64,000 nt of DNA, taken from positions 4,000,001 to 4,064,000 of the forward strand of contig OZ242351.1 in the NCBI GenBank assembly GCA_965208675.1, given 5' to 3'. Position 1 is the stretch's first letter. Each line of letters opens with the position of its first letter. A program made the translations under genes and the position numbers. Source of the DNA: Candidatus Poribacteria bacterium. Lineage in GTDB: Bacteria; Poribacteria; WGA-4E; PCPOR2b. Under the pieces are notes generated by a model. It worked only from the letters and a program-made list of their open reading frames with translations. It was not told the DNA's origin and did not search any database. Below are positions 1 through 42,318 of the stretch, in pieces.

Positions 1-870
1 TTCGGATTCAAATACCTGTTATCGGACAATCTGACGTTCAAGGGAAGTTGGGGGCGGTTCAGTCAATTCCTTTTTACTGTGAACGACGAAGATCAGGTGC
101 TGCAAATCGTCGATTTTTGGCTGCCGGTGCCTGAAGAATATGATGCCATAAAGAATCAACATTTCATTCTTGGATTTGAAAGATGGTTTAACCCGGGATT
201 TACCGGATCAGTTGAGGCATATTATAAACCCTACAGCAACGTCCTCACTAGCAATCTCGGCAACGATCCCGGCCGTGCGTTTGATGATTTCATCTCGGGT
301 ACAGGACGTGTTTGGGGTTTGGAACTTTTCATGAAGAAAACCGCCGGGAAATTTACGGGCTGGCTCGGCTATTCATATTCGAATGTTGAAAGGCGGTTCG
401 ATTTCAACCAAGATGGAAGGGTCGAAAAGACAGAGAATCGTGCGTCGGAAATCTATCCACCCAAATATTCGAGGCCGCATTCGCTCAACTTCGTTACCAG
501 TTACCAGATGAGCCGGAACAACCGGTTCTCACTCTCCTGGACCGTGTCAAGCGGTCAACCCTATACACCGGTCGTCGGCAAAGTCTATTATGGCGGCGAC
601 TCGCCGGATAACCCCTATGGGGACGTTATTAGTATAGAAGGCAGAAAGAATTCATCGCGGTATCCACCCTACGTACGCGGAGATATTGCCTGGATCAGAG
701 ACATCTCACCCTTCGGGGCGAACGGAAAATTCAAGCTGCAGGTCATCAATTTTACCAATCATTACAACTATCTACTCTATATTTGGGATCACGACCGTTC
801 ACCGTCAAAAGTTACAGCAATTAGTATGTTTCCAATTATCCCGACATTCGGAATAGAATTTGAGTTCTAA
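1..870 (+). CDS. TonB-dependent receptor, C-terminal part (starts before the window)
   Basis: Frame 1 is open from base 1 (FGFKYLLSDNL...). It has barrel motifs GSVEAYYK, GWLGYSYS and SGQPYTP, and a C-terminal beta-signal FGIEFEF. Confidence 0.85.
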   Translation, partial: FGFKYLLSDNLTFKGSWGRFSQFLFTVNDEDQVLQIVDFWLPVPEEYDAIKNQHFILGFERWFNPGFTGSVEAYYKPYSNVLTSNLGNDPGRAFDDFISGTGRVWGLELFMKKTAGKFTGWLGYSYSNVERRFDFNQDGRVEKTENRASEIYPPKYSRPHSLNFVTSYQMSRNNRFSLSWTVSSGQPYTPVVGKVYYGGDSPDNPYGDVISIEGRKNSSRYPPYVRGDIAWIRDISPFGANGKFKLQVINFTNHYNYLLYIWDHDRSPSKVTAISMFPIIPTFGIEFEF

Positions 871-1918
871 GAGGAAAACCGTGCATATTCTAAGAGTCTG
901 CCTCGCGGCGCTCTTGCTAGTTGCCGCGCTCTCATGCGAGCGGGAACTGGAGGTCGCCGATTTCAAAGATGATTTCGGAAATTACCAACCGGAACTAAAA
1001 GTTGAGGGTTTGCTTGACTATGATGCTCCGGAAAATTCCGTCATTCGGATTATCAGAACCGAGGCGATTGCGGAATCTGATGTGTTCGACGGAATTGACA
1101 ATGACGGAGACGGCGAAATTGACGAGTATGATGAGACGCTCCCGCTTATTCAGGATACAACGGCAACCGTCACTGTGACGAATTTAAATTCAGGGGAGGC
1201 ATACGAATTCCTGTACGTTACGCTGGCGGAGGAGTTGTTCTATCGGGAATTTCATGATGATTCCCCCCGCCTAGCTGGAAGAAGGGTTTATGGCGATGGC
1301 GGCTACAAACCAAAAAGTGCAGACGGTTTTCAGGTGGAACTCTTTGCCCAATATCGTTTGGAAATCTTTTCCGAAGCCTTCGACCAGACAATTACCGGCG
1401 TGACGACAGTCTATCCGCCGGTTGAATTCATCGACATTGATACCCTCTCAATCCTTAACGGCGGCCGCATAACGCTGGATAGAAATGTCGAAAAGACTAT
1501 CTACTGGCGTTCAGACTTGGAGGTGACTTCATACTTCGTTACCGTTGTCACCGTATTTGAATTGGACAACGTATTTCTTGAAGAAGAGCTATTCCTTGAG
1601 GACCCGCAACTCCATGAGGACGAACGGTTCGTCGAATCTGTCGATTCGTTCTCACTGTCCAGGGACAAAGATTTGACAGAACAGCACGGAGTCTCAATCG
1701 GCAAAGAGAGTTTCTTTGTGGGGCGGGAGGCTAATGCCGGCAAAACCTTGTCAATAATCGTCGACGGGCTAAGCCCGGAATATGGGCGTTACATCTTTTC
1801 GGCGTTGCCGCTGAACGACGCGCAGAGATCCAACCTTCGCGATCAAGACGGAAAACCCGTCATGGGCGCCTTCGGCGCAACCGCGTCAAACAGAATACAA
1901 GTGGAAATCGAAGAGTAA
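860..1918 (+). CDS. Lipoprotein accompanying the TonB receptor (DUF4249-like)
   Basis: Lipobox ALSC followed by ERELEV...ELKVEGLL. Overlaps the receptor stop. C-terminal MGAFGA. Internal DGIDNDGDGEIDE acidic loop. Confidence 0.7.
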   Translation: MSSKRKTVHILRVCLAALLLVAALSCERELEVADFKDDFGNYQPELKVEGLLDYDAPENSVIRIIRTEAIAESDVFDGIDNDGDGEIDEYDETLPLIQDTTATVTVTNLNSGEAYEFLYVTLAEELFYREFHDDSPRLAGRRVYGDGGYKPKSADGFQVELFAQYRLEIFSEAFDQTITGVTTVYPPVEFIDIDTLSILNGGRITLDRNVEKTIYWRSDLEVTSYFVTVVTVFELDNVFLEEELFLEDPQLHEDERFVESVDSFSLSRDKDLTEQHGVSIGKESFFVGREANAGKTLSIIVDGLSPEYGRYIFSALPLNDAQRSNLRDQDGKPVMGAFGATASNRIQVEIEE

Positions 1919-1926
1919 TACTTTTC

Positions 1927-2066
1927 GGTTCTTGTCGGTTGGGTAGAGCGATCAACCGACCGAATAGGGAGGGATCAACCGAGTGAATAACGAGGGCGAT
2001 AGTCTTATCCGAATGGTTTGCGATAAACCAAAAACTCCGCAATACCCAAAAGCGTTGGCTTTCGCT
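1927..2066. repeat. Family-A composite GTAG palindromic element, truncated copy (A1) containing module M
   Basis: GTTCTTGTCGGTTGGGTAGAGCG, then ATCAACCG...GATAGTCTT, then ...CAAAAGCGTTGGCTTTCGCT. The same blocks recur at 3301, 4716, 6990 and 8489. Confidence 0.8.
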
Positions 2067-2116
2067 CCACCACATTACTTACCAAACAATTGATGCATAC
2101 GATCCAATTTCTAAAT

Positions 2117-2555
2117 ACCCCCCTGATAAGGGGGGCTAGGGGGTTGCCACTCTTTTTTATTCGGATAGCGCTTTTCAGATTAAAGCTAGCCAATCCATAA
2201 GCCATCCAAGGGAATTGTCAGCCTCTACCCCATTGTAGGCGGTGAATCTTGCCCCGCAAAGTAGTAGGCACACTCCGTGTGCCGTAATCTTCTTTGAAAT
2301 CACACTACCCATACAATACACCATAACCGCGCAATCTAGCGATTGAATAGGGCGCAATAGTCGTCGGCTCCTGTATCCTGTAGGAGCGATCTCCGAATCG
2401 CGGCACTTATTTGAAACCGAGTTTTTTTCTTCAAAACTCGGTTTCTCCTAATCCTAATTGCAGTCCGAATCTCAGATTTAATAGATTCTAACGTGAATTC
2501 GGCCTGAACAATGTCTCAGACGAAATCGTAATCTATCCGACAGGAGTTGAATACT
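2117..2555 (+). repeat. Duplicated ~440-bp palindrome-packed leader of secreted paralog 1 (copy at ~5806-6241; partial copy at ~3616-3798)
   Basis: Direct alignment by eye. Contains CCCCTGATAAGGGGG, GTAGGCGG..GCCCCGC, GTAGGCACACTCCGTGTGCC, GTAGGAGCGATCTCCGAATCGCG, GAAACCGAGTTT..AAACTCGGTTTC and an AGGAG RBS. Confidence 0.9.
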
Positions 2556-3311
2556 ATGCCAATCAAAACTTTCCGATTCGTGATTGTTCTCTTGGGAACC
2601 GTCGCTGTGTTTGTGCGAATGTGTATCGCTGGTACGTGGATAGACGATTTCAGTGACCGAACCCTTCGAGATTGGGAAGGCGGTCTAATAAATGACGAGG
2701 TTAGCGCAGGTGTTGTTGGTGGACACTTCTATTATAGAGGAAAAAATGAACGAGCAGGTTATTATATGAAAAATTGGGCATTAGGGAAAATCCAAGATTT
2801 TTCGCTCGAGTTGAAGTTTATGGTTAGAGACCTCCGAGTCCCAGAGCGGTGTTCTTGGACTATTAATTATGACTCATTTAACGTAGAAACGCTGAATCGC
2901 AACGGGCTGATGGGCTTTTTGTGGTATCCCAATTTTGAGAAACCCAACATTATGGATGTTACAATTGATCGCTTCGAGCGGGAGGGGCACGCCTGGATTC
3001 CACAGACCGCTGCAATAGACAGCTTCGCATTCGAAGAAAAGGTCTGGTACACATTGCGGATTGAACGCGAAGGAAACCAATACACTTTTTCGATGGGCGA
3101 TTTGATTTTATTCGCAGAAGATGATACAGTGCAGATGGGTACGATTGAGCTGAGATTTTATGAACGGAATACCATCTGGTTGGATGATTTTACAGTGACC
3201 GGCCCCGATGTTCCGAATGGCGGACCTGGCTTTTTGGGAGTCAATCCATTGGCAGAACAATTAACGACGATGTGGGGAAAGCTGAAAGCACAGAACTGGC
3301 AGTTCTTGTAG
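2556..3311 (+). CDS. Secreted beta-rich protein with C-terminal LTTMWGKLK motif, paralog 1
   Basis: AGGAG RBS, signal peptide ending CIA, then GTWIDDFSD. WYTLRIER and IWLDDFTVTG strands resemble ConA/LamG-like jelly-rolls (inference). About 76% identical to paralog 2 by eye. Confidence 0.85.
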   Translation: MPIKTFRFVIVLLGTVAVFVRMCIAGTWIDDFSDRTLRDWEGGLINDEVSAGVVGGHFYYRGKNERAGYYMKNWALGKIQDFSLELKFMVRDLRVPERCSWTINYDSFNVETLNRNGLMGFLWYPNFEKPNIMDVTIDRFEREGHAWIPQTAAIDSFAFEEKVWYTLRIEREGNQYTFSMGDLILFAEDDTVQMGTIELRFYERNTIWLDDFTVTGPDVPNGGPGFLGVNPLAEQLTTMWGKLKAQNWQFL

Positions 3312-3615
3312 GTTGGGTAGAGCGATCAACCGACCGAATAGGGAGGGATCAACTGAGTGAATAGCGAAGGCGATAGTCTTGACCGGCAACCAAAACGACT
3401 ACCAAACGAAAAATCCGTCCCATTTACGCGAAAACTCCGCCGTTTATCATGGATTAAATTATCATCGTATTGACGCTATCACTAGCCTATCCAAACGTCC
3501 CAAAAGCGTTGGGTTCGCTACACCTTAACAATTTCAGCACATATTCCAATACCGAAATCCATTGGACATTATTCGCGTCTTTCATTTAATCCGCTTAACC
3601 CAACCTACAAAAACT
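3301..3615. repeat. Family-A composite element (REPIN/MITE-like) with terminal inverted repeats (A2)
   Basis: Begins AGTTCTTGTAGGTTGGGTAGAGCG and ends CGCTTAACCCAACCTACAAAAACT, a near reverse complement. Confidence 0.9.
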
Positions 3616-3798
3616 GTATCCTATAGGAGCGATCTCCGAATCGCGGTACTCATTTGAAACCTAGTTTTTTCTTGAAAACTCGGTTTCTCCTAATCCTAAT
3701 TGCAGTCCGATTCTCAGATTTAATAGATTCTAGCGTGAATTCAACCTGAACAATGACACAGACGAAATCGTAATCTTTTCGATAGGAGTTGAAATACT

Positions 3799-4542
3799 AT
3801 GCCAATCAAAACTTTCCGATTCATGGTTGTTCTCTTTGTAACCGTCGTTTTGTTTGGACGAATGTGTATCGCCGGTACGTGGATAGACGATTTCAGTGAC
3901 CCAACCCTTCGAGATTGGGAGGGCAGTCGAATAAATGTCGGGTTTAACACAGGTGTTGTTGATGGACACTTCTATTATAGAGGAACAAATCAACACGTTA
4001 ATGATATGGAGAATATTGCATTAGGGAAAATCCAAGATTTTTCGCTCGAGTTGAAATTTATGATTAGAAACCTCCGAGTTCCAGAGTATAGTTTTTGGAC
4101 TATTGAATATTCTTCATTTAACGAAGAAACGTGGAATTACGACGGGATTATGCAATTTTTGTGGTATCCCCAAGGGGAACCCAAAATTAACATTATGGAT
4201 GTTACAATTGATTGCTTCGAGCAGGAGGGGGACGCCTTTTTTCCACAGACCGCTGCAATAGACAGCTTTGCATTCGAAGAAAAGGTCTGGTACACGTTGA
4301 GGATTGCTCGCGAAGGAAACCAATACACTTTTTCGATGGGCGATGTTAGCTTATTCACAGAAGATGATACAGTGCCTATGGGGACGATTGAGTTGTCCTT
4401 TCATGGACGGAATACCATCTGGTTGGATGATTTTATCGTGACCGGCCCCGATGTGCCGAATGGCGGTCCAGGCTATTTGGGAGTCAATCCATTGGCAGAA
4501 CAATTAACGACGATGTGGGGAAGGCTCAAAGCACAGAACTGA
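3799..4542 (+). CDS. Secreted beta-rich protein with C-terminal LTTMWGRLK motif, paralog 2
   Basis: Same RBS, leader, signal peptide and framework as paralogs 1 and 3. Confidence 0.85.
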   Translation: MPIKTFRFMVVLFVTVVLFGRMCIAGTWIDDFSDPTLRDWEGSRINVGFNTGVVDGHFYYRGTNQHVNDMENIALGKIQDFSLELKFMIRNLRVPEYSFWTIEYSSFNEETWNYDGIMQFLWYPQGEPKINIMDVTIDCFEQEGDAFFPQTAAIDSFAFEEKVWYTLRIAREGNQYTFSMGDVSLFTEDDTVPMGTIELSFHGRNTIWLDDFIVTGPDVPNGGPGYLGVNPLAEQLTTMWGRLKAQN

Positions 4543-4715
4543 CCGAATCCGTTTTCCCGTCTTCCGAGCTTGCTATTACCCACAAGTCTCTGGAGTCAAA
4601 CGCCGTCTATGTTGGGGCTAAGAACGACTGTTCATTTCGGTATGGTGTAAACTGTGGGAAGGACATCCCTGTCCCGATAATCAGGGCTAGGAAGCCCTTC
4701 CCACAGGAGCTTCAC

Positions 4716-5012
4716 AGTTCTTGTAGGTTGGGTTGAGCGGACTTCACCAAATGATGTACAATTTCACGTTTTGCTCTAGAAGTCTAACGACGTCCAAGAT
4801 CCGATGGACAGAGCGTAACCCAACGATCAACCGAGCGAATAGCGAAGGCGATAGTTTTATCCGAATGGCTTCCGATAAACCAAAAACTCCGCAATACCCA
4901 AAAGCGTTGGGTTCGCTACACCTTAACAATTTCAGCACATATTCCAATACCGAAATCCATTGGACATTTTTGCGTCTTACATTTAATCCGCTTAACTCAA
5001 CCTACAAAAACT
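4716..5012. repeat. Family-A composite element (A3)
   Basis: Left arm GTAGGTTGGGTTGAGCGG-71 nt-AGCGTAACCCAAC, module M, spacer, then an inverted right arm ending CCTACAAAAACT just before dapB. Confidence 0.9.
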
Positions 5013-5013
5013 T

Positions 5014-5757
5014 ATGGAAAGTACATCAATGCCCACCCGTGTTTTAGTGAATGGAGCCTCAGGTAGAATGGGACAGGTTGCGATAGAGGCAGTTAATCTT
5101 GATGGCGGTCTGGAACTGGCGGGAACGGGACATCGAGGAGACGACCTATTATCCCTGATTGAGATAACTAATCCCGATGTTGTGTTGGACTTTACAACAG
5201 CAACGGTTGTCTTTGAAAACACCGCAACTATCATCAAAGCAGGCGTGCACCCCGTAATCGGAACAAGTGGCTTGTTGGAAGCCCAAGTTGAAAAGTTGGT
5301 TGCGTTGTGTGAACAGCAGCGACTAGGAGGCGTAATCGTGCCGAACTTTTCTATTTCTGCTGTGTTGATGATGAAGTTTGCAAAGCATGCGGCGCGTTAC
5401 TTTGACAGAGTTGAAATAATTGAGCGTCATCATGATGAGAAAAAAGATTCGCCTTCGGGCACAGCCATAAGAACCGCGGAGATGATGGCAGAGGATATTT
5501 CTTCACGAGATGATATTGAGGAGGAAGCAACGATTCCGGGGGTGAGAGGTGCGCTCTATCAGGGGATTTCAATACACTCGATACGGTTGCCCGGTCTGGT
5601 TGCGCATCAGGAGGTTCTTTTTGGCGGACCGGGCCAATTGCTAACCATAAAAAGTGATCTTATCAACCGAGATGCATTTAGTCCGGGGATTTGCCTTGCC
5701 TGCAAGGAAGTCGTAAACTTAAACGAATTGAAATGCGGTCTGGAACAATTTTTATAA
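5014..5757 (+). CDS. dapB: 4-hydroxy-tetrahydrodipicolinate reductase
   Basis: VNGASGRMG nucleotide-binding motif, VIGTSG, ERHHDEKKDSPSGTA catalytic motif, HSIRLPG. True start may be the ATG at 5029. Confidence 0.95.
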   Translation: MESTSMPTRVLVNGASGRMGQVAIEAVNLDGGLELAGTGHRGDDLLSLIEITNPDVVLDFTTATVVFENTATIIKAGVHPVIGTSGLLEAQVEKLVALCEQQRLGGVIVPNFSISAVLMMKFAKHAARYFDRVEIIERHHDEKKDSPSGTAIRTAEMMAEDISSRDDIEEEATIPGVRGALYQGISIHSIRLPGLVAHQEVLFGGPGQLLTIKSDLINRDAFSPGICLACKEVVNLNELKCGLEQFL

Positions 5758-5758
5758 G

Positions 5759-6241
5759 AGTTCTTATAGGTTGGGTAGAGCGATCAACCGACCGAATTTT
5801 TAAATTCCTCCCTGATAAGGGGGGCTAGGGGGGTTGCCACTCTTTTTTATTCGTTTATCGTACTTCAGAATGAAGTTCCCCGATCCATAAGCCGTCGAAG
5901 GTCATTGTCAGACGCTACCCCATTGTAAGAGGGGCATCTTCCCCCGCAAAGTAGTAGGCACACTCCGTGTGCCGTAATCTTCTGTGAAATCACACTACCC
6001 ATTCACCGCAACCGCGCAATCAAGCGATCGAAAAGGGCGCAATAGTTGTCGGCTCCTGTATCCTGTAGGAGCGATCTCCGAATCGCGGCACTTATTTGAA
6101 ACCGAGTTTTTTTCTTCAAAACTCGGTTTCTCCTAATCCTAATTGCATCCCGATTCTCGGATTTATTAGATTCTAACGTGAATTCAGCCTGAACAATGAC
6201 ACAGACGAAATCGTAACCCTTTAGACAGGAGTTGAAATACT
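5759..6241 (+). repeat. Half family-A arm (5759-5797) fused to a second copy of the ~440-bp leader
   Basis: AGTTCTTATAGGTTGGGTAGAGCGATCAACCGACCGAAT followed by sequence colinear with 2117-2555. Confidence 0.9.
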
Positions 6242-6988
6242 ATGCCAATCAGAATATTCCGATTCATGATTGTTCTCTTCGTAACCGTCTTTGTGTTTGG
6301 ACGAATTTGTATCGCCGGGACGTGGATTGACGATTTCAGTGACCGAACCCTTAGAGATTGGGGGGGCGGTCGAAGAAATCACGAGTTTAGCACAGGTGTT
6401 GTTGGTGGACACTTCTATTATAGAGGGATAGTTGAACAAGCATTTTGTCATATGGAGAATAGGGGATTAGGGAAAATCCAAGACTTTTCGCTCCAGTTGA
6501 AGTTTATGGTTAGAAACCTCCGAGACCTACGGCAGGGTTTTTTGACTATTGATTATTCTTCATTTAACGAAGAAACGTGGAATACCGACGGGATTATGCA
6601 ATTTTCGTGGTATCCCCAAGGGGAACCCAAAATTAACATTATGGATGTTACAATTGATTGCTTCGAGCAGGAGGGGGACGCCTTTTTTCCACAGACCGCT
6701 GCAATAGACAGCTTTGCATTCGAAGAAAAGGTCTGGTACACGTTGAGGATTGCTCGCGAAGGAAACCAATACACTTTTTCGATGGGCGATGTTATATTAT
6801 TCGCAGAAGATGATTCAGTGTCGATGGGTACGATTGACCTGTTATTTTTTGGAAGGTGTACCGTCTGGTTGGATGATTTTACCGTGACCGGCCCCGATGT
6901 GCCGAATGGCGGGCCTGGCTTTTTGGGAGTCAATCCATTGGCAGAACAATTAACGACGATGTGGGGAAAGCTGAAAGCACGGAACTGA
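6242..6988 (+). CDS. Secreted beta-rich protein with C-terminal LTTMWGKLK motif, paralog 3
   Basis: Same architecture as paralogs 1 and 2. Bases 6607-6794 are identical to 4161-4348. Confidence 0.85.
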   Translation: MPIRIFRFMIVLFVTVFVFGRICIAGTWIDDFSDRTLRDWGGGRRNHEFSTGVVGGHFYYRGIVEQAFCHMENRGLGKIQDFSLQLKFMVRNLRDLRQGFLTIDYSSFNEETWNTDGIMQFSWYPQGEPKINIMDVTIDCFEQEGDAFFPQTAAIDSFAFEEKVWYTLRIAREGNQYTFSMGDVILFAEDDSVSMGTIDLLFFGRCTVWLDDFTVTGPDVPNGGPGFLGVNPLAEQLTTMWGKLKARN

Positions 6989-6989
6989 C

Positions 6990-7234
6990 AGTTCTTGTAG
7001 GTTGGATAGAGCGATCAACCGACCGAATAGGGAGGGATCAACTGAGTGAATAACGAGGGCGATAGTCTTTTCTTGCCTTATCCGTATCGCTTCCGATAAA
7101 CCAAAAGCTCCGCGATACCCAAAAGCGTTGGGTTCGCTACACCTTAACAATTTCAGCACATATTCAAATACCGATATTCATTGGCCATTTTTCGCGTCTT
7201 TCATTTAATCCGCTTAACCCAACCTACAAAAACT
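6990..7234. repeat. Family-A composite element (A5)
   Basis: AGTTCTTGTAGGTTGGATAGAGCG ... CGCTTAACCCAACCTACAAAAACT, starting 1 bp after the stop codon. Confidence 0.9.
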
Positions 7235-7377
7235 CGGTGTCTCCTAACCAACGTCCGCCTTTCCCGCTCAATTTCCCACCTAAAGTCCAACCTAGACCTT
7301 TACCCAATTGTCGGTTCAACGGTTGCCCAAAAAGGCACTTGATAATTGTGTTGCTTTAAGCTACAATATAGGAAATC

Positions 7378-7635
7378 ATGTATACGGTTCGCTATCGAGC
7401 AGGCGTAGCAAAGATGCTCCAGCGTATGCCGCGGAACGTCGCTAAAACCGTTGTACGTAAGATTGACCAACTTGCTGAGTCGCCTTATGCGCCGAACAAA
7501 AATGTAACGCGTTTAAAGGGTGAACGAGGATACCGGCTCAGAGTAGGTGATTGGCGTGTGTTATATGAGATTCGGGACAATAACCTCGTCATCGAAATTA
7601 TCAAAATCGGACCAAGAGGAGGCGTGTATCAATGA
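7378..7635 (+). CDS. Type II toxin, RelE/ParE superfamily
   Basis: 85 aa with GYRLRVGDWRVLYEI and C-terminal IGPRGGVY. 4-bp overlap with the downstream HTH gene. Confidence 0.9.
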   Translation: MYTVRYRAGVAKMLQRMPRNVAKTVVRKIDQLAESPYAPNKNVTRLKGERGYRLRVGDWRVLYEIRDNNLVIEIIKIGPRGGVYQ

Positions 7636-7991
7636 ATGTTGAGACCGTCGAAAGACAAGGAGTGGAATATGTCCTTGTACCGAGAGTACAGTACAATCAG
7701 CTCTTAGAAGATGCGGAGATGCTGAGAGACATTAGAGAGTTCCGTGAAGCAAAAGACGCTGGCGAGGAAACCTACCCGAGTGAAGTGATTAACCGGCTGA
7801 TTCTAAATGAGGAGAGTCCAATACGGGTTTATCGAGACTATCGGGGACTCACGCAGCAGCAACTCGCTGATAAGTGCGGGATTCAGCGCGCATATTTAGC
7901 AGAGATTGAAACCGGGCGCAAGGCCGGTTCCATTAAAACTTTGAAGACAATCGCCGCAGCGCTTGGCGTTGAACTAACCTCCATCTCATGA
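7632..7991 (+). CDS. XRE-family HTH antitoxin
   Basis: RGLTQQQLADKCGIQRAYLAEIETG HTH, coupled to the RelE-like toxin. Confidence 0.85.
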   Translation: MNVETVERQGVEYVLVPRVQYNQLLEDAEMLRDIREFREAKDAGEETYPSEVINRLILNEESPIRVYRDYRGLTQQQLADKCGIQRAYLAEIETGRKAGSIKTLKTIAAALGVELTSIS

Positions 7992-8165
7992 GGTGGAAAG
8001 TTTAATCGCTCTGAATTGGGAAAAGGTCGGGGATTCTCTCGTCTTTGCCGATTGGATTGGGTCGATCAAAAAGCCGGTAAGCCTGTCGCAACTGTCCACC
8101 CTTCATATTCGAGGATACGCGAAAGATTAAGATGAATTCCTTCGCAGTTATAGAAAGGTGCAATA

Positions 8166-8402
8166 ATGAGCCAAATTGTCGTAAATCCAGAAATTCTGGG
8201 TGGGAAACCAATTATCGAAAGCACTCGCCTCAGTGTAGAGCATGTGTTAGGGTTACTCGCGAGCGGCATGTCCCACACAGAGATCTTTGAAGCCTTCCCA
8301 GAGTTGAATGAAGAAAACCTTCAATTGGTGCTCGCGTATGCATCTCGGGCACTCCGTGATGAGGTGATAATCGATCTCCCAATCACCCATGGCGGGGTTT
8401 GA
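8166..8402 (+). CDS. DUF433-family antitoxin
   Basis: IVVNPEILGGKPII.STRLSV...LASGMS..EI..AFPEL signature. Confidence 0.9.
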   Translation: MSQIVVNPEILGGKPIIESTRLSVEHVLGLLASGMSHTEIFEAFPELNEENLQLVLAYASRALRDEVIIDLPITHGGV

Positions 8403-8404
8403 CA

Positions 8405-8473
8405 ATGCTACTCCCGCTTGTGACTGACATTAACATCACAGTGCCCGTCAGACAGCGACTGAATATGGATTAA
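8405..8473 (+). pseudogene. Truncated DUF5615-like PIN toxin (22-codon remnant)
   Basis: MLLPLVTDINITVPVRQRL resembles the N-terminal strand-D-x-N motif of DUF433 partner PIN toxins. It stops 15 bp before repeat A6. Confidence 0.55.
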
Positions 8474-8488
8474 ACCTGATTGAGAGCA

Positions 8489-8848
8489 AGTTCTTGTAGG
8501 TTGGGTAGAGCGGATTTATCCAAATCGGCGTCATTAACAAGTTACCGCTCCAAATTTCGAATGGTGTTTGGTAGAAATTCACGTGAAGCGAAACCCAACT
8601 CTTTTGAAAACTCCGGCAACCAAAACGACGACCAAACGAAAAACCCGTCCCATTTACCCAATCACTCCGTCGTTTTTCATTTTTCCTGTCGTCATCGTAG
8701 TGACCTTATCCCTCGTCTCCCGGGGCGTCCCAAAAGCGTTGGGTTTCGCTAGACGTGAGTTAACACCAACCATGTTGCATTTCTGGCGGTAAGAACTATC
8801 GCCCTCCCTATTCGGTCGGTTGATCGCTCTACCCAACCTACAAAAACT
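8489..8848. repeat. Family-A composite element, complete four-arm copy (A6)
   Basis: GTAGGTTGGGTAGAGCGG-73 nt-AGCGAAACCCAAC, central spacer, GTTGGGTTTCGCT, inverted module M, CGCTCTACCCAACCTACAAAAACT. Confidence 0.9.
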
Positions 8849-8866
8849 GTCCAAAATAGAGCGTGA

Positions 8867-8895
8867 TTGACACCAAATTGCTTCTGACGTATAAT
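8867..8895 (+). promoter_or_regulatory. Consensus sigma70-type promoter of the PhyH gene
   Basis: TTGACA-17 bp-TATAAT, a perfect match. Confidence 0.8.
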
Positions 8896-8916
8896 TGGTG
8901 ACTCTACTGCGGCAAT

Positions 8917-9900
8917 ATGTGCAGCGCACTCACCAATTATGGGAAGCAGATTATGGAATCTTGTGGCGTTTCAAGCGGGGACCTTGAATCCGCGCTCACG
9001 CATCTTTCCGAACACGGATACACCGTCATAGAAGGCGTGCTTAGCGGCGATGAAATCCAGCACTACCGAAGTTTTGCGGCGGAACTCTTTGAACGAGAAC
9101 GCGAGCATCCTTTCGAGCCGGAAGACGGTCCGGCGTTGCCGGCAGATGCCGAGATTGAAGCTTATCTGAAGGAGAGTTACCTAATCAGCACGGCGGAACA
9201 GGCGCGGCTCATGCGGCGAATCCGCCATACACGCGCTCAAAACCGCGGCACGCCGTGGCCCGTCGCCCCCTCAGACGTGGTTAAGAATTTCCTTCACCTC
9301 CCGACCCTGTTCGATCATGACAAGTCGCAGCGTATCTGGAACTTGGTCAACAAAGCCCCGGATTTCGGAAAACTGATAGAACATCCGGCGGTGCTTTCGT
9401 TGGCGCGGGCGGTTCTTGGGGACGATTGCGTGCTCGCCGACTGCAGCGCCACCAGTATTGGAGCGCGTACCGGCGAAGGCGGGGCATGGCATGTGGATGT
9501 GCCGCTCGGTCAGTTGCCGGAACCGCTGCCGGACTTTCCGCTGACCATCCAGAACGCTTGGATGCTAGATGCGTTTACAACGCGCAACGGGGCAACCCAG
9601 GTTGTTCCCAAAAGCCATCGCACCCGCAGAAAGCCCGCATGGGGCGCGCAGCAGGAGGACGGGAAGATTCTGACGGGACCTGCCGGCTCGGTGGCAATCT
9701 GGTTGTCAAACACATGGCACCGATCGGGGCCCAACGCAACCGGCAATCCCCGCTGGGCTATCCTCTGCTATTACTCCCGTTCATGGATAAAGCCGTTTAC
9801 CGATTTTACATCGTGCCTAGACCCGGCAATCGCGAAAACCTTCTCACCTGGTTTGCGGTATCTTCTAGGATTTTCCGCCAACGCCCCCGTGCGAGGATAG
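8917..9900 (+). CDS. Phytanoyl-CoA dioxygenase (PhyH)-family Fe(II)/2-oxoglutarate oxygenase
   Basis: GYTVIEGVL, WHVD, NGATQVVPKSH, AGSVAIW...WHRSG. Start may be 8953. Confidence 0.9.
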   Translation: MCSALTNYGKQIMESCGVSSGDLESALTHLSEHGYTVIEGVLSGDEIQHYRSFAAELFEREREHPFEPEDGPALPADAEIEAYLKESYLISTAEQARLMRRIRHTRAQNRGTPWPVAPSDVVKNFLHLPTLFDHDKSQRIWNLVNKAPDFGKLIEHPAVLSLARAVLGDDCVLADCSATSIGARTGEGGAWHVDVPLGQLPEPLPDFPLTIQNAWMLDAFTTRNGATQVVPKSHRTRRKPAWGAQQEDGKILTGPAGSVAIWLSNTWHRSGPNATGNPRWAILCYYSRSWIKPFTDFTSCLDPAIAKTFSPGLRYLLGFSANAPVRG

Positions 9901-10025
9901 ATGGAAATTTTATTTATCCATTTTAACTAGAAAACCACGAACTGTTTCATTGGCTGCTGATTGGGAAAATCTTGACTATACCACGGATTGATTTGGAAAT
10001 GCCAAATTCAGGGAGGAACTCAAAA

Positions 10026-10313
10026 TTGGAGACGCAAGTTATTCAATACCCAACTGAAATTCTGTCGGCCCTCGGAAAAGAGGCTGAAGTATTTGAAAAA
10101 GAAGCCCGTTTGTTATTGGCGTTGAAATATTACGAAACTGGCAAACTCAGCACCGGACTCGCAACTCAACTCGCTGGTGTGCCGCGCACCACCTTTATAT
10201 TTCTTCTTGGCAGACACGGTCTGTCGCCCTTTGGAGAAACACCTGAAAGGCTCAAAAAATCTCTCGAAAATGCAAGAAAAGCTAGTAATCGCCAACCCAC
10301 ACGGAGCCGATGA
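10026..10313 (+). CDS. UPF0175-family antitoxin
   Basis: GGAGG RBS and TTG start. LALKYYETGKLSTGLATQLAGVPR..F...L...G signature. Confidence 0.85.
   Translation: METQVIQYPTEILSALGKEAEVFEKEARLLLALKYYETGKLSTGLATQLAGVPRTTFIFLLGRHGLSPFGETPERLKKSLENARKASNRQPTRSR
10270..10296 (+). pseudogene. N-terminal remnant of a DUF3368-like PIN toxin
   Basis: MQEKLVIAN overlaps the antitoxin 3' end as expected for a UPF0175/DUF3368 pair, then the resemblance stops. Confidence 0.45.
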
Positions 10314-10470
10314 TGTCCGAACGTTCCGCTATTCGAAACCCCATGACCAAATACGCGGTTGGCATTGGCTGGAAGTCATTAGCCTTCTCCCTTACCAAGG
10401 GGGAGTTAGAGGGGGGTTTGGCACTAATCACCTATGCTAAATCTGATAACCAATTTCGACCATGAATTTA

Positions 10471-10788
10471 TCAATATGTCAATATTTTCGCAGTTTCTCG
10501 TGACGATTTCCGAATTCCCACCTCACAGTTCAAGCGTTTCAGAAACCGCATGAGCCGCTCAACGCTATAGTAAGAAAGTTTGGCAGCTTTAAGGCGGGCA
10601 ATCTCGGGCTGTTTTACACCAAGCAACTTAGCTGCCACTACTTGGGTTAGCTGGCGTTCCTCCAAAATACGGAAGATTTCCGCTCCTAACTCCGCTTTTA
10701 ACAGTTCTTCTTCGGCAACCTCATCAGGAAAACCTAAATCCTTAAAAAAGTTTCCGCTGCTTTGTTCGACCTTGATTCTACTGCTCAT
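10471..10788 (-). CDS. XRE/HigA-like HTH antitoxin without an intact toxin
   Basis: SSGNFFKDLGFPD..EELLKAEL..LTQVVAAKLLGVKQPEIARL..YSVERL. Confidence 0.85.
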   Translation of the reverse strand: MSSRIKVEQSSGNFFKDLGFPDEVAEEELLKAELGAEIFRILEERQLTQVVAAKLLGVKQPEIARLKAAKLSYYSVERLMRFLKRLNCEVGIRKSSRETAKILTY

Positions 10789-11291
10789 GCGCCTATTTCT
10801 GCCTCCTTCGCTCGCCTAAAATTTCGTCAAATCTAAATTTCATTATAACTAATCAGCTATATCCAAACAAGTGCCAAAGTGTTAATCCGAAACTTTTCTT
10901 TTTATCATTTCCCCTGAATCTAGCAAGGTGCAAAATTTCATAGTAAGGTTTCATGTAACCTCCCGTATAAATTGCAAAGAGTTCAGTCATAGCCTGAGTT
11001 CTCACGCCTTTTTTGTCCGTAGGGAATTTGCGTTTGTCCTCGGAAAACTATGAAAACTATGAAATTCTGTATGAGGCAAAAAGATAATTTACGCATATTA
11101 TCGCTTTCGTCGAATACTCCTTCCCCTTACAAAATTCACCATTACCCGCATCTCAATGGAAGCGAATCATACCAAAGAAACCGAGTTTATTGAAACACTC
11201 GGTTTCTGGATTTTTCTCACCGTGGTGTAAACTCAGATTGAGATTTTTCGTCATATGTATGGACTCAAAGGAAAAAGGCATAATACTCTGA

Positions 11292-13535
11292 ATGAAGCAA
11301 CTTTCCATATACCTCCTTTTCATTTTATCCATCCAATCCTACATCGCACTTGGACAGGAAACCGTAACCCCTGCCGGGGAAATTTTCGGTACAATCTATC
11401 AAGTAGGCATTAATCAGCCCGTTCCATCGGCACGAGTCCGCATCGTCGAAACCGGCGCCCGCACGACGTCCGACTCAACCGGCGAATTTCGATTCCGCAA
11501 CCTACCCGCCGGAGACTACACTCTTTCCGCAACCGCATCCGGTTTTCTTCCCTCCAACGGCGTTGCTGTCACGGTCAAACCTGACGAAACCTCCCAACTT
11601 GAGATATATCTTGAGCCGGAGACAGTTCTGCTTGATGAGGTTGAGGTAACGACGGATCGTCCGGCGTCGACCGTCGGTAGAGAGACTCTGGGTGGTTCCG
11701 AGATTCAGCGCGTCCCCGGCGCTATTGGCGATTCCCTGCGAGCGCTGCAAGCCCTGCCTAGCGTCGGTGTCGCAAACGACTTTAGCGGCGCCCTCTATAT
11801 TCGCGGCGGATCCGACGAGGACAACCTCTACTACTTCGACCGCGTGCCGATCGGTTATCCCTATCATTTCGGCGGGATTGTCTCCTCACTCAGTTCCGAA
11901 ATTATAGAGCGAATCGACGTTTACGCCGGCGGCTACGGCGCCGAATTCGGCGTTGATTCCCAGGCGGTAATTGACATCTACTCGCGGGACGAGAACACGG
12001 ATGGGTTCCGGTCAAAGTTAAACGTCAACCTGCTCTATTCGGAAGGTCTGGTGGAGGGAAAACTCGGAGACCAGGGGTTCTGGTATGCTGCCGGACGGCG
12101 GAGTTACATCGATTTTTTCTTGAGTTCGATGTCGTTTGACACAGGACAAATCACCAGCTTCCCGCGGTTCTGGGATTATCAGGTAAAGGCGGGTTATGAC
12201 CTCTCTGAAAAACACCAACTATCCGCGAACGTGTTTGCTTCAGGCGACAGCTTTGCGCTCAAACTCGATGGTGAAGATGTCGATGCGGACTTTAGAGGCA
12301 ATCTCAACTTCGGAAGCGGGTTTGAGGGCGCAGGCGTTCACCTGCGTTCCCGTCTTACCGATCGGCTCTCATCTTTTCTATCATTGACCCGTTCCTATTT
12401 CGAATTCGATATCAACATCGGTGCTGGACTATCTCTCAAGATCGATGCCCCGCAATACAACCTCCGCGAAGACCTCGCCTACACGTTAACACCGAAGCAT
12501 CAACTCGAATCCGGCGTGATACTCGGCATTGAGCCCGGTAAAGCCATCGGCACGTTCGCCCGTCCGCCCGATGAAGGTGAAGTTGATTACGACTTTCGGT
12601 TTGTTGAGAAAACAACTTTCGACGAATCGGTCGCGAGACGCCGTATGGAAATCTATCTGCAAGACCGCTATAGCGTGCTGCCGTATTTGACAGTCGTGTT
12701 TGGTCTGCGTGCCGACTACCTAAGCGGCATAGACGAACTGTCCCTTCAACCGCGGGGGAGCTTCCTGCTAGGCATATCGGACGGATCGCAACTCCAATTC
12801 GCTTACGGAAACTACAATCAGGTGCCAGGCCCGCCGAGACTGACCCGGAGCGTTGGGAACCCCAACCTGAGCACAAGCCAAGCCAGCCACTATGTGTTGG
12901 AATTCACGCGCCAAGTTTCACCGGCAACGGAGTTCAAAGTCGCAGGTTATTACAAAAACCTTGCCGACCTTGCCACAGTTGACGCCAATGCGAGGTATCT
13001 TAACCAAGGTGTTGGCTATGCGCAAGGCACTGAGGTGTTCCTCCGGCATCGCGCAGGAGATCGCTTTTTGGGGTGGGGCTCTTACGCCTATGGACTTTCC
13101 AAACGGCGCGACCGCCCTGATGAACCGTATCGCTTCTATTCGTTTGACCAAACGCACGTTGCTACGTTTGCGGCGACCTACAGCCCGGCAGCTACGTGGG
13201 AGGTTGGGGCAAAATGGCAATATCGAACCGGAAACCCTTACACGCCGATTCTCGACGCCAATCTTGGCACTGATCCGCGCAACGGAGAGCCTATCTATTT
13301 CCCGGTCTACGCAGAGATAAATTCGGCGCGATTTCCGCCATATCACCGATTGGATGTGAAATTCAGCAAAGCATTTCGGTTTGAAAGCTGGGAGATTGGC
13401 TTCTTTATCGAACTCCTAAACATCTATAATCGCAAGAACCTGCTTGACTTCAACTACAGCGAGGATTACTCCGAAAAGGACGAAATCTACCAATTCCCCA
13501 TTCTGCCGTACTTAGGGGTTACCACCGAGTTCTAA
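11292..13535 (+). CDS. TonB-dependent receptor with N-terminal carboxypeptidase-regulatory-like domain
   Basis: Signal peptide, DSTGEFRFRNLPAGDYTL, plug motif LYIRGGSDEDNLYYFD..GGYGAEFG, C-terminal LGVTTEF. Confidence 0.92.
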   Translation: MKQLSIYLLFILSIQSYIALGQETVTPAGEIFGTIYQVGINQPVPSARVRIVETGARTTSDSTGEFRFRNLPAGDYTLSATASGFLPSNGVAVTVKPDETSQLEIYLEPETVLLDEVEVTTDRPASTVGRETLGGSEIQRVPGAIGDSLRALQALPSVGVANDFSGALYIRGGSDEDNLYYFDRVPIGYPYHFGGIVSSLSSEIIERIDVYAGGYGAEFGVDSQAVIDIYSRDENTDGFRSKLNVNLLYSEGLVEGKLGDQGFWYAAGRRSYIDFFLSSMSFDTGQITSFPRFWDYQVKAGYDLSEKHQLSANVFASGDSFALKLDGEDVDADFRGNLNFGSGFEGAGVHLRSRLTDRLSSFLSLTRSYFEFDINIGAGLSLKIDAPQYNLREDLAYTLTPKHQLESGVILGIEPGKAIGTFARPPDEGEVDYDFRFVEKTTFDESVARRRMEIYLQDRYSVLPYLTVVFGLRADYLSGIDELSLQPRGSFLLGISDGSQLQFAYGNYNQVPGPPRLTRSVGNPNLSTSQASHYVLEFTRQVSPATEFKVAGYYKNLADLATVDANARYLNQGVGYAQGTEVFLRHRAGDRFLGWGSYAYGLSKRRDRPDEPYRFYSFDQTHVATFAATYSPAATWEVGAKWQYRTGNPYTPILDANLGTDPRNGEPIYFPVYAEINSARFPPYHRLDVKFSKAFRFESWEIGFFIELLNIYNRKNLLDFNYSEDYSEKDEIYQFPILPYLGVTTEF

Positions 13536-42140: not shown

Positions 42141-42318
42141 AGATTTTGTAGGGTGGGTAGAGCGATCAACCGAGTGAAAAAACGAGGAGGATAGTCTTTC
42201 GAAATCATTGTAGGTTGGGTTAAGCGGGCTTGACGAAACAGTGTCGGTATGTCTGGAAGGATTGGTGGTTTGATGGCGTTGAAAATTTTATTACCCGCAG
42301 CGTAACCCAACGCTTTTT
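42141..42318. repeat. Family-A arms with module M (A7) between convergent genes
   Basis: GTAGGGTGGGTAGAGCG plus M, then GTAGGTTGGGTTAAGCGG-71 nt-AGCGTAACCCAACGCTTTT. Confidence 0.85.

Follow-up and report, generated by a model that had tools for sequence, protein, structure and literature searches.

What kind of repeat keeps its two arms almost unchanged and lets everything between them vary except the length? The question is raised by positions 4716-5012 of the window analysed here, a whole stretch of 64,000 nt from a Candidatus Poribacteria genome (a single contig of 4.89 Mb, rated 96.4% complete and labelled G000 in the comparisons below). An earlier note on this DNA had described six hairpins of a "family A" with loops of about 71 nt, far longer than those of classical REPs, and proposed either a guide/spacer-like RNA or a site of targeted substitution mutagenesis. 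All six hairpins were recovered, each at its place in Table 1, with arms and interiors matching exactly, and the three units on the minus strand are indeed near-copies (96% and 76% identity to the copy at 3499-3615; family D5). An 18-nt arm pattern, with up to two mismatches allowed, matches the window at 12 sites, where 100 shuffles give an expectation of 0.

The element at 4716-5012 is a canonical doublet, whereas an ATCAAC module occupies one half of the mosaics at 3301-3615, 6990-7234 and 8489-8848 (Table 1). Elements in the window start 0-10 nt from the stop codons at 3311, 5757 and 6988. In the sister genome G002, one additional ATCAAC module is present at the equivalent of 4825-4905, the left half of the element at the place of 6990-7234 is a long-interior unit and not an ATCAAC module, and the ortholog of 8489-8848 has identical arms around an interior that is about 74% identical (alignment counted by hand).

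Table 1. Family-A elements of the 64-kb window and their parts (window positions)
Position	Strand	Feature	Family or remark
1927-1965	+	GTAG-type arm (2 mismatches) and ATCAAC module, without long interior	D7
3301-3615	.	Mosaic: GTAG arm (3308-3325) and ATCAAC module, then inverted long-interior unit	I19
3508-3519		Inner arm of the inverted unit of 3301-3615	
3520-3590	-	Interior of that unit, 71 nt	
3591-3608		GTAG arm of that unit	
4716-4740	+	Outer end of doublet: AGTTCTT, then GTAG-tagged left arm GTAGGTTGGGTTGAGCGG	Abrupt start of conservation (276 arms)
4723-4740	+	Left arm of the 4716-5012 doublet	
4741-4811	+	Variable interior, 71 nt (the reported feature)	96% identical to G002 counterpart
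4812-4824	+	Inner right arm AGCGTAACCCAAC, partner of 4727-4740 in the stem	7-bp core, mean pair probability 0.79-0.85
4825-4905	+	Doublet centre: ATCAAC-type module, then ...CCCAAAAGC	D8, D9
4906-5012	-	Second, inverted unit of the doublet	D5, I18
4906-4917	-	Inner arm of the inverted unit	
4918-4987	-	Interior of the inverted unit, 70 nt	
4988-5005	-	GTAG arm of the inverted unit	
5006-5012	-	AAAAACT	
5759-5797	+	GTAG-type arm (ATAG variant) and ATCAAC module, immediately 3' of the dapB-like stop codon	D7
6990-7234	.	Mosaic: GTAG arm (6997-7014) and ATCAAC module, then inverted long-interior unit	I25
7139-7209	-	Interior of the inverted unit of 6990-7234, 71 nt	
7210-7227		GTAG arm of that unit	
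8489-8848	.	Mosaic: long-interior unit, centre of ~140 nt, inverted arm pair around ATCAAC-type interior	I17
8496-8513		Arm of the long-interior unit of 8489-8848	
8514-8586	+	Interior of that unit, 73 nt	
8587-8599		Arm of that unit	
8738-8750, 8824-8841		Inverted arms of 8489-8848	
42148-42311	+	GTAG arm (42148-42165) with ATCAAC module, then solo long-interior unit	
42210-42227	+	Arm of the solo unit	
42228-42298	+	Interior of the solo unit, 71 nt; right arm follows up to 42311	

Several of these elements lie among three tandem paralogous genes (2547-3311, 3799-4542 and 6242-6988), which encode proteins of 247-254 aa with a hydrophobic N-terminus; the one paralog scanned, 3799-4542, has no Pfam or NCBIfam match. 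Each paralog has a family-A element downstream and, upstream, a conserved leader some 250 nt long that contains the perfect hairpin GAAACCGAGTTTTTTTCTTCAAAACTCGGTTTC (2413-2446, 3656-3688 and 6098-6131), and this arrangement of genes and leaders looks like the outcome of unequal recombination between repeats. A dapB-like gene (DapB_N and DapB_C; 5014-5757) is directly bracketed by family-A elements. Neither this gene nor the paralog at 3799-4542 has a listed match in the otherwise syntenic stretch of G002, which suggests that genes may be gained and lost between repeats in the manner of cassettes. Genes for a ParE-type toxin with an HTH antitoxin (7378-7991) and a DUF433 protein (8166-8402) are situated between the elements at 6990-7234 and 8489-8848. 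A short repeat, …CTGTAGGAGCGATCTCCGAATCGCGGC…, was also found in both orientations beside family-A arms and in gene leaders (2377-2400, 3620-3645 and 6062-6087 in the window, and near 4491500 and 4493200 in the genome).

In the whole genome, exact occurrences of the 17-nt left arm GTAGGTTGGGTWRAGCG number 194, those with a single mismatch 82 and those with two 69, against 0, 1 and 8 for a reversed-arm control. The right arm, GCG(N)AACCCAAC, is found 68-76 nt downstream of 202 of these 345 left arms, and 198 of the 202 paired units contain a variable interior. Delimited as in the earlier note, the 198 interiors have a mean length of 71.04 nt (sd 0.87, range 68-73; 1 of 68 nt, 8 of 69, 33 of 70, 105 of 71, 43 of 72 and 8 of 73), so that the constant length claimed there proves to be a narrow distribution and not a broad one across the genome. 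Minor classes comprise 18 units with loops of 2-5 nt, which are classical small hairpins, and nine units in which a conserved 32-36-nt "ATCAAC..." module serves as the interior; a few units have two of these modules. The 79 partnerless arms have no right arm inside 400 nt. Copies are spread across the whole genome and are extragenic, only two of the 198 units lying inside an open frame of at least 600 nt, as compared with 73% of random segments. Counts of orientation relative to the replication strands are uninterpretable, because the cumulative GC skew follows a weak, asymmetric course, with its minimum at 3.27 Mb and its maximum at 4.79 Mb.

In 276 arms, conservation begins abruptly 7 nt outside a GTAG tetranucleotide, and the outer end of the element is therefore AGTTYTT-GTAG. 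The tetranucleotide itself is nearly invariant (G 0.97, T 1.00, A 0.98, G 0.99), the search pattern having included GTAG with one mismatch allowed. At position -3 relative to GTAG, C (0.42) and T (0.51) are both frequent, and position -2 is mostly T (0.81); thus, CT stands directly 5' of GTAG in a minority of copies. Behind AGTTYTT-GTAG, the stem sequence GTTGGGTWRAGCG pairs with GCGWAACCCAAC across the spacer of about 71 nt. The stem consists of a 7-bp core, GTTGGGT/ACCCAAC, with an averaged pair probability of 0.79-0.85, followed by two or three non-canonical positions and a G-C/C-G pair. Variants of the left and right arms covary as same-base pairs (position 12 with 94, mutual information 0.85), and the result is either T-A together with R-T pairs or several purine-purine oppositions in a row.

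Most arms belong to inverted pairs whose GTAG ends face outward. The spacing of the 99 adjacent left/right arm pairs has a peak of 27 pairs at 260-269 nt, and tail-to-tail doublets of about 261 nt are the most common form. A canonical doublet reads AGTTYTT-GTAGGTTGGGTWRAGCGG, an interior of about 71 nt and AGCG(A)AACCCAAC-GCTTTT in its first half, then a centre of about 50 nt, AAAAGC-GTTGGGTTACGCT, another interior of about 71 nt and CCGCTYAACCCAACCTAC-AARAACT. The two interiors of one doublet are not complementary, and their likeness is 0.52 within doublets against 0.56 between them (35 doublets). Neither a target-site duplication nor a direct duplication of the flanks was seen at arm pairs. 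An autonomous form of the element was rejected, since the arm-bounded stretches of 0.5-4.4 kb contain ordinary genes only and no transposase. Doublets repeated in tandem together with their flanks were found at G000:C1:1190613-1191910 (four copies with a period of about 346 nt), and two copies about 303 nt apart at 4368692-4369256; these arrays are segmental duplications and not products of transposition.

The interiors differ widely in sequence. Ungapped comparison of 77 distinct 73-nt interiors gave a median identity of 36%, compared with 26% expected from composition, and weak conservation is recognized in register (G1, T-rich 3-5, AA 10-11, G34, T36, G39, A47, T54, G71 and A73). Both features fit what had been read from the window by eye, namely a likeness of "a third to 40%" and a common start motif. 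Mutual information over 77 equal-length units revealed no stacked Watson-Crick covarying pairs in the interior, the averaged pair probability there does not exceed 0.11 (0.17 after shuffling and 0.06 after permutation of columns), and the minimum free energy of 147 interiors does not differ from dinucleotide shuffles (z = 0.04 with RNA and -0.06 with DNA parameters). The idea that the interior folds, as RNA or as single-stranded DNA, was accordingly dropped, covariation, pair probabilities and folding energy all being without signal. Intrinsic DNA bending was likewise discarded, since the AT periodicity shows no excess at 10-11 nt, although periods of 9 and 18 nt have some power. The interiors resemble themselves when shifted by 36-37 nt (z about 7) or by 18 nt (z about 4), these z values being overstated because the copies are related; taken with the 35-nt module, this self-similarity suggests that the spacer may be modular, composed of 2 × ~36 nt.

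The 198 interiors form 178 clusters at an identity of at least 90%, 93 at 70% and 47 at 60%. Recent copies are therefore few, with no sign of recent bursts. Subfamilies of interiors recur at many loci and across species, and the diversity is best read as that of many old sublineages. Ratios of indels to substitutions from all-versus-all gapped alignments were set aside, as they are confounded by the aligner at low identity. In contigs from four sponge-metagenome runs, joints skip exactly the interiors (3521→3591, 4741→4812 and 8751→8825). These joints are nevertheless no evidence of excision, because the sides are only about 20 nt and other copies with different interiors map by their arms.

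How the interiors change was followed in G002 over one 400-kb syntenic segment containing 22 syntenic loci, of which nine have a clearly orthologous unit, six have no unit in G002 and seven align poorly. At the nine orthologous loci, found by an arm-based detection that favours intact arms, 250 of 261 arm positions are identical (95.8%), as are 537 of 649 positions in the interiors (82.7%) and 3046 of 3664 in the surrounding non-unit DNA (83.1%). Because the last two values are so similar, the interiors do not mutate faster than their surroundings, and single interiors are as high as 96-99% identical between the two species. The number of substitutions per gap event is, however, 11.2 in the interiors and 3.5 outside. 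In short, the interiors accumulate substitutions as fast as the DNA around them but are resistant to indels, and the spacer, evolving like its surroundings, is not functional as a sequence or a fold. The higher identity of the arms points to selection on them at each locus, unlike what is expected of a purely selfish element. One indel between G000 and G002 lies directly after GTAGGTTGGGTAG, and another falls precisely at the junction of GTAG and GTTGGGT, a position that may equally be read as the junction of two GTTGGGT cores. Such differences would be consistent with recombination at the arms; they are no proof of RAYT action, because slippage between the 7-nt cores gives the same result.

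GTAG at the 5' foot of an imperfect hairpin is described in PMC3479197 and PMC3733652 as the signature of REPs recognized by RAYTs. When one genome per species (185,579 species) was searched with a RAYT that lies between family-A doublets in relatives, 80 loci were returned. All 23 loci of at least 64% identity have family-A arms within 1.5 kb, whereas only three of the 57 distant loci (at most 54% identity) have a single arm-like match. Twenty-one of the 23 come from records titled Candidatus Poribacteria, one from an "uncultured bacterium" and one from a Microcoleaceae cyanobacterium. The RAYT of this clade aligns with the E. coli TnpAREP (PDB 4ER8) over residues 2-166 (E = 3.9e-40). The clade belongs to the Y1 HUH enzymes of the IS200/IS605 superfamily and is found across one order of Candidatus Poribacteria. 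The arm itself is abundant in three families of this order (25 of 25, 93 of 100 and 9 of 10 genomes), rare in a fourth (one of four genomes), and represented by at most two matches per genome elsewhere in the phylum sample. This RAYT is of a second class (180-184 aa, 195-202 bits on NF047646, for which the cut-off is 80), which in six relatives has GTAGGTTGGGT doublets on both sides.

In the flanks of the 23 loci, interiors of 68-75 nt are present in 68 units, loops of 0-5 nt in 30 and the 35-nt module in three. At one locus, the doublet upstream of the RAYT has an interior of 73 nt at the very position at which the downstream one has a loop of 3 nt, so short and long loops are interchangeable at the same positions. 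In the RAYT tree, loci whose loops are all short group in a single subclade (support 86/87), and the cyanobacterial RAYT is placed, unsurely, on a long branch among Poribacteria sequences. At the cyanobacterial locus (1266-2122 of L064), the RAYT is 64% identical to the Poribacteria clade and is accompanied by GTAGGTTGGGTT arms with loops of 0-5 nt; a horizontal transfer between sponge-associated or marine lineages is possible.

Four Y1-transposase-like genes are present in the genome studied here, of which only one is a true RAYT (132 bits on NF047646), and this one is flanked by a different repeat, CTGTGGGAGGG...CCCACAG, with a copy also at 4652-4706 of the window. This second, unrelated REP family, CTGTGGGA[AG]GG ... 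CCCACAG, has 36 copies of its 11-mer and lies on both sides of the RAYT at G000:C1:3522656-3523069 (locus L002), the copy at 4652-4706 being just upstream of the 4716-5012 doublet. The RAYT cognate to family A is absent from this genome, where tblastn gave only Y1 proteins of 23-28% identity, and was not found in G002; matches in this genome to the flanks of the site from which the RAYT has been lost are not collinear. G000 and G002 nevertheless have 276 and 288 arms, respectively, as against 133 and 144 in G001 and G003, the other two genomes of the genus, in which the RAYT is kept. Arms without a cognate RAYT mean either that they have a role in the host, or that another enzyme maintains them, or that the loss is recent. 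A full-text search of the literature found nothing on REPs or RAYTs in Poribacteria.

Family A is similar in many respects to the REPs and BIMEs of E. coli with their TnpAREP (4ER8), as these are presented in PMC3733652: GTAG stands 5' at the foot of an imperfect stem, and there are hundreds of extragenic copies. As in BIMEs, tail-to-tail and head-to-tail dimers occur, as do mosaics with other short modules; as with TnpAREP, the RAYT (in the relatives) is a single-copy gene flanked by the repeats, and there is no target duplication. The loop is what differs. The survey of GTAG REPs in PMC3733652 speaks of loops of 2-20 bp and of discarding units of unusual loop length, in agreement with the remark in the earlier note that 71 nt is far outside the classical range. 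The family-A loop is 71 ± 1 nt, and its interior is unstructured, variable in sequence and fixed in length. With 198 interiors of 68-73 nt and only 18 loops of 2-5 nt, family A is therefore a variant and not a typical GTAG REP. A further difference from the E. coli system is that this genome has lost the cognate RAYT and keeps about 350 arms. In other Poribacteria and the Microcoleaceae cyanobacterium, a short-loop form occurs together with a RAYT from this clade (64-74% identity). Its arms are identical (GTAGGTTGGGTT..AACCCAAC), and it differs from the long-loop units in its loop of 0-5 nt.

Some of these features recall the REPINs of Pseudomonas fluorescens SBW25 (Bertels & Rainey 2011, PMC3116915), which, in that account, have inverted conserved ends, a less conserved spacer whose length matters and frequent doublets, and form old, vertically inherited populations tied to one RAYT. 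However, each end of the SBW25 element is described in PMC3116915 as a palindromic REP, whereas the two arms of family A are the halves of one stem, and the SBW25 spacer is credited there with hairpin capacity and compensatory changes, whereas that of family A shows no pairing. The doublet interiors of family A are also not complementary, and there is no dominant master sequence. Like the subterminal hairpins of IS200/IS605 elements and their palindrome-associated derivatives, for which PMC3479197 describes Y1 HUH chemistry on single-stranded DNA, family A has a 5' guide tetranucleotide and no target duplication. Unlike them, it contains no transposase or TnpB, and the RAYT is a single-copy gene outside the repeats.

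The label "REP-like" given to these hairpins is thus correct, and it can be sharpened to GTAG-tagged REPs tied to one RAYT clade. At a probability of roughly 0.8, we consider family A to be a population of such REPs, non-autonomous and spread by this clade. According to PMC3479197, the REP/RAYT mechanism requires GTAG and the hairpin, with cutting at a nearby CT. By analogy with the E. coli TnpAREP, the RAYT would recognize GTAG and the stem on single-stranded DNA and would cut and join nearby, and such cutting and rejoining would produce doublets and mosaics. The spacer would then act as a linker measured by length and free in sequence, and the diversity of the interiors would reflect the age of many sublineages, with no diversifying mechanism.

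The two mechanisms proposed in the earlier note fare poorly beside this reading. A guide-like small RNA, a transcript of roughly 110 nt that would pair with its target through the variable interior, would account for a fixed-length variable insert between conserved arms. On the GTAG strand, arm position 13/94 shows G·T oppositions and not C·A, which would be in keeping with the folding of a single strand. Targets are, however, lacking in the sequences compared: when 150 interiors (68-76-nt spacing, first right-arm pattern) were compared with the genome by BLAST, 357 of the 361 matches lay within 120 nt of an arm core, and the remaining four are one self-match and three marginal matches (E = 0.001-0.004). 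The two interiors of the 4716-5012 doublet have no match in 50,697 phage or 72,556 plasmid records. An Rfam search of window positions 1-12000 at E ≤ 1 gave two weak matches, both away from the elements. Moreover, one doublet carries both orientations, the same interior occurs at many loci, and no partner nuclease is encoded beside the units, whose association is with a DNA transposase. With no clear target in these comparisons and neither fold nor covariation, the guide RNA is highly improbable. Of the viral contigs, 21 have an exact arm, about as many as expected by chance on a rough estimate; none has a long interior, and nine of the 21 have short loops (2-7 nt). Targeted substitution mutagenesis of the interior, for example by a system like a diversity-generating retroelement, would explain why subfamilies differ almost to saturation in their interiors and yet have intact arms. 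But orthologous interiors in G002 have diverged no more than their surroundings (82.7%, with single cases of 96-99%), no reverse transcriptase (PF00078) was found in this 96%-complete single-contig genome, and the 150 interiors have no second copy outside the elements that might be a template repeat, apart from the three marginal matches. The interiors being extragenic, their diversification would serve no protein. Since substitutions arise at the background rate and subfamilies recur across loci and species, we regard such mutagenesis as hardly credible.

The 25-nt terminal inverted repeat is suggestive of two other origins, one as a miniature inverted-repeat derivative of an ordinary insertion sequence (DDE type) and one as a cassette-flanking recombination site like the attC of integrons. 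The consensus of attC cores is GTTRRRY / RYYYAAC, which the arm cores GTTGGGT / ACCCAAC fit, and the genes at window positions 2500-9900 lie singly between elements, like cassettes. Yet target-site duplications are missing, as is a transposase in the longer arm-bounded stretches, and the cores are ordered GTTGGGT...ACCCAAC on both strands, the reverse of attC (5'-RYYYAAC ... GTTRRRY-3'). The best score of an integron integrase in the genome is 41 bits on TIGR02249 (cut-off 265), copies are spread genome-wide, and the association with a RAYT holds in 23 of 23 loci; both origins are thus very unlikely. A more serious competitor, still an unlikely one, is that the family has been domesticated, arms and fixed spacing being kept for a function of the host and the transposase being dispensable. 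Examples of such a function would be mRNA 3'-end processing and the attachment of a protein that acts on the nucleoid, on topology or on single strands. Domestication would be compatible with an origin from REPs and a RAYT. It is favoured by the conservation of arms at the nine orthologous loci (95.8%, the interiors and their surroundings being at 83%) in a pair of genomes that lack the cognate RAYT and also hold the most copies in the genus, by the proximity of elements to stop codons (0-10 nt at 3311, 5757 and 6988), and by the 11.2 substitutions per gap event in interiors against 3.5 outside. These values come, however, from nine loci of one 400-kb segment in which intact arms were favoured by the detection, and units were gained or lost between the sister species at six of 22 syntenic loci, so that individual copies are dispensable.

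Within the REP reading, the fixed length may have a physical cause. Bacterial SSB tetramers bind single-stranded DNA in 35-nt and 65-nt modes, and the 35-nt module, the interior of about 71 nt and the lags of 18 and 36-37 nt recall these modes. The interior might accordingly be a molecular ruler, the stem closing, and the element being recognized, only when a host protein wraps about 70 nt of single-stranded DNA and brings the ends together; this is a speculative idea to which we give little weight. If it were true, the REPs of Poribacteria would depend on SSB or a similar protein and would have been co-opted by the host, and the persistence of the arms and their spacing after the loss of the RAYT would be explained.

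In these genomes, the roughly 350 arms and their mosaics account for much of the intergenic repeat content, and in annotation they should not be confused with CRISPR-like or guide-RNA loci. REPs and their RAYTs are among the commonest repeats of bacteria, and the accepted picture is that of a compact hairpin recognized by the transposase. Across an order of sponge symbionts, by contrast, the canonical GTAG and stem are present with the halves of the stem split by a spacer whose length is kept within about 1 nt. Because long-loop and short-loop forms are neighbours beside one and the same transposase, they constitute a natural experiment on what a RAYT, or a co-factor of the host, measures on single-stranded DNA, and the two sister genomes that have intact arms and no enzyme bear on whether REPs become elements maintained by their host.
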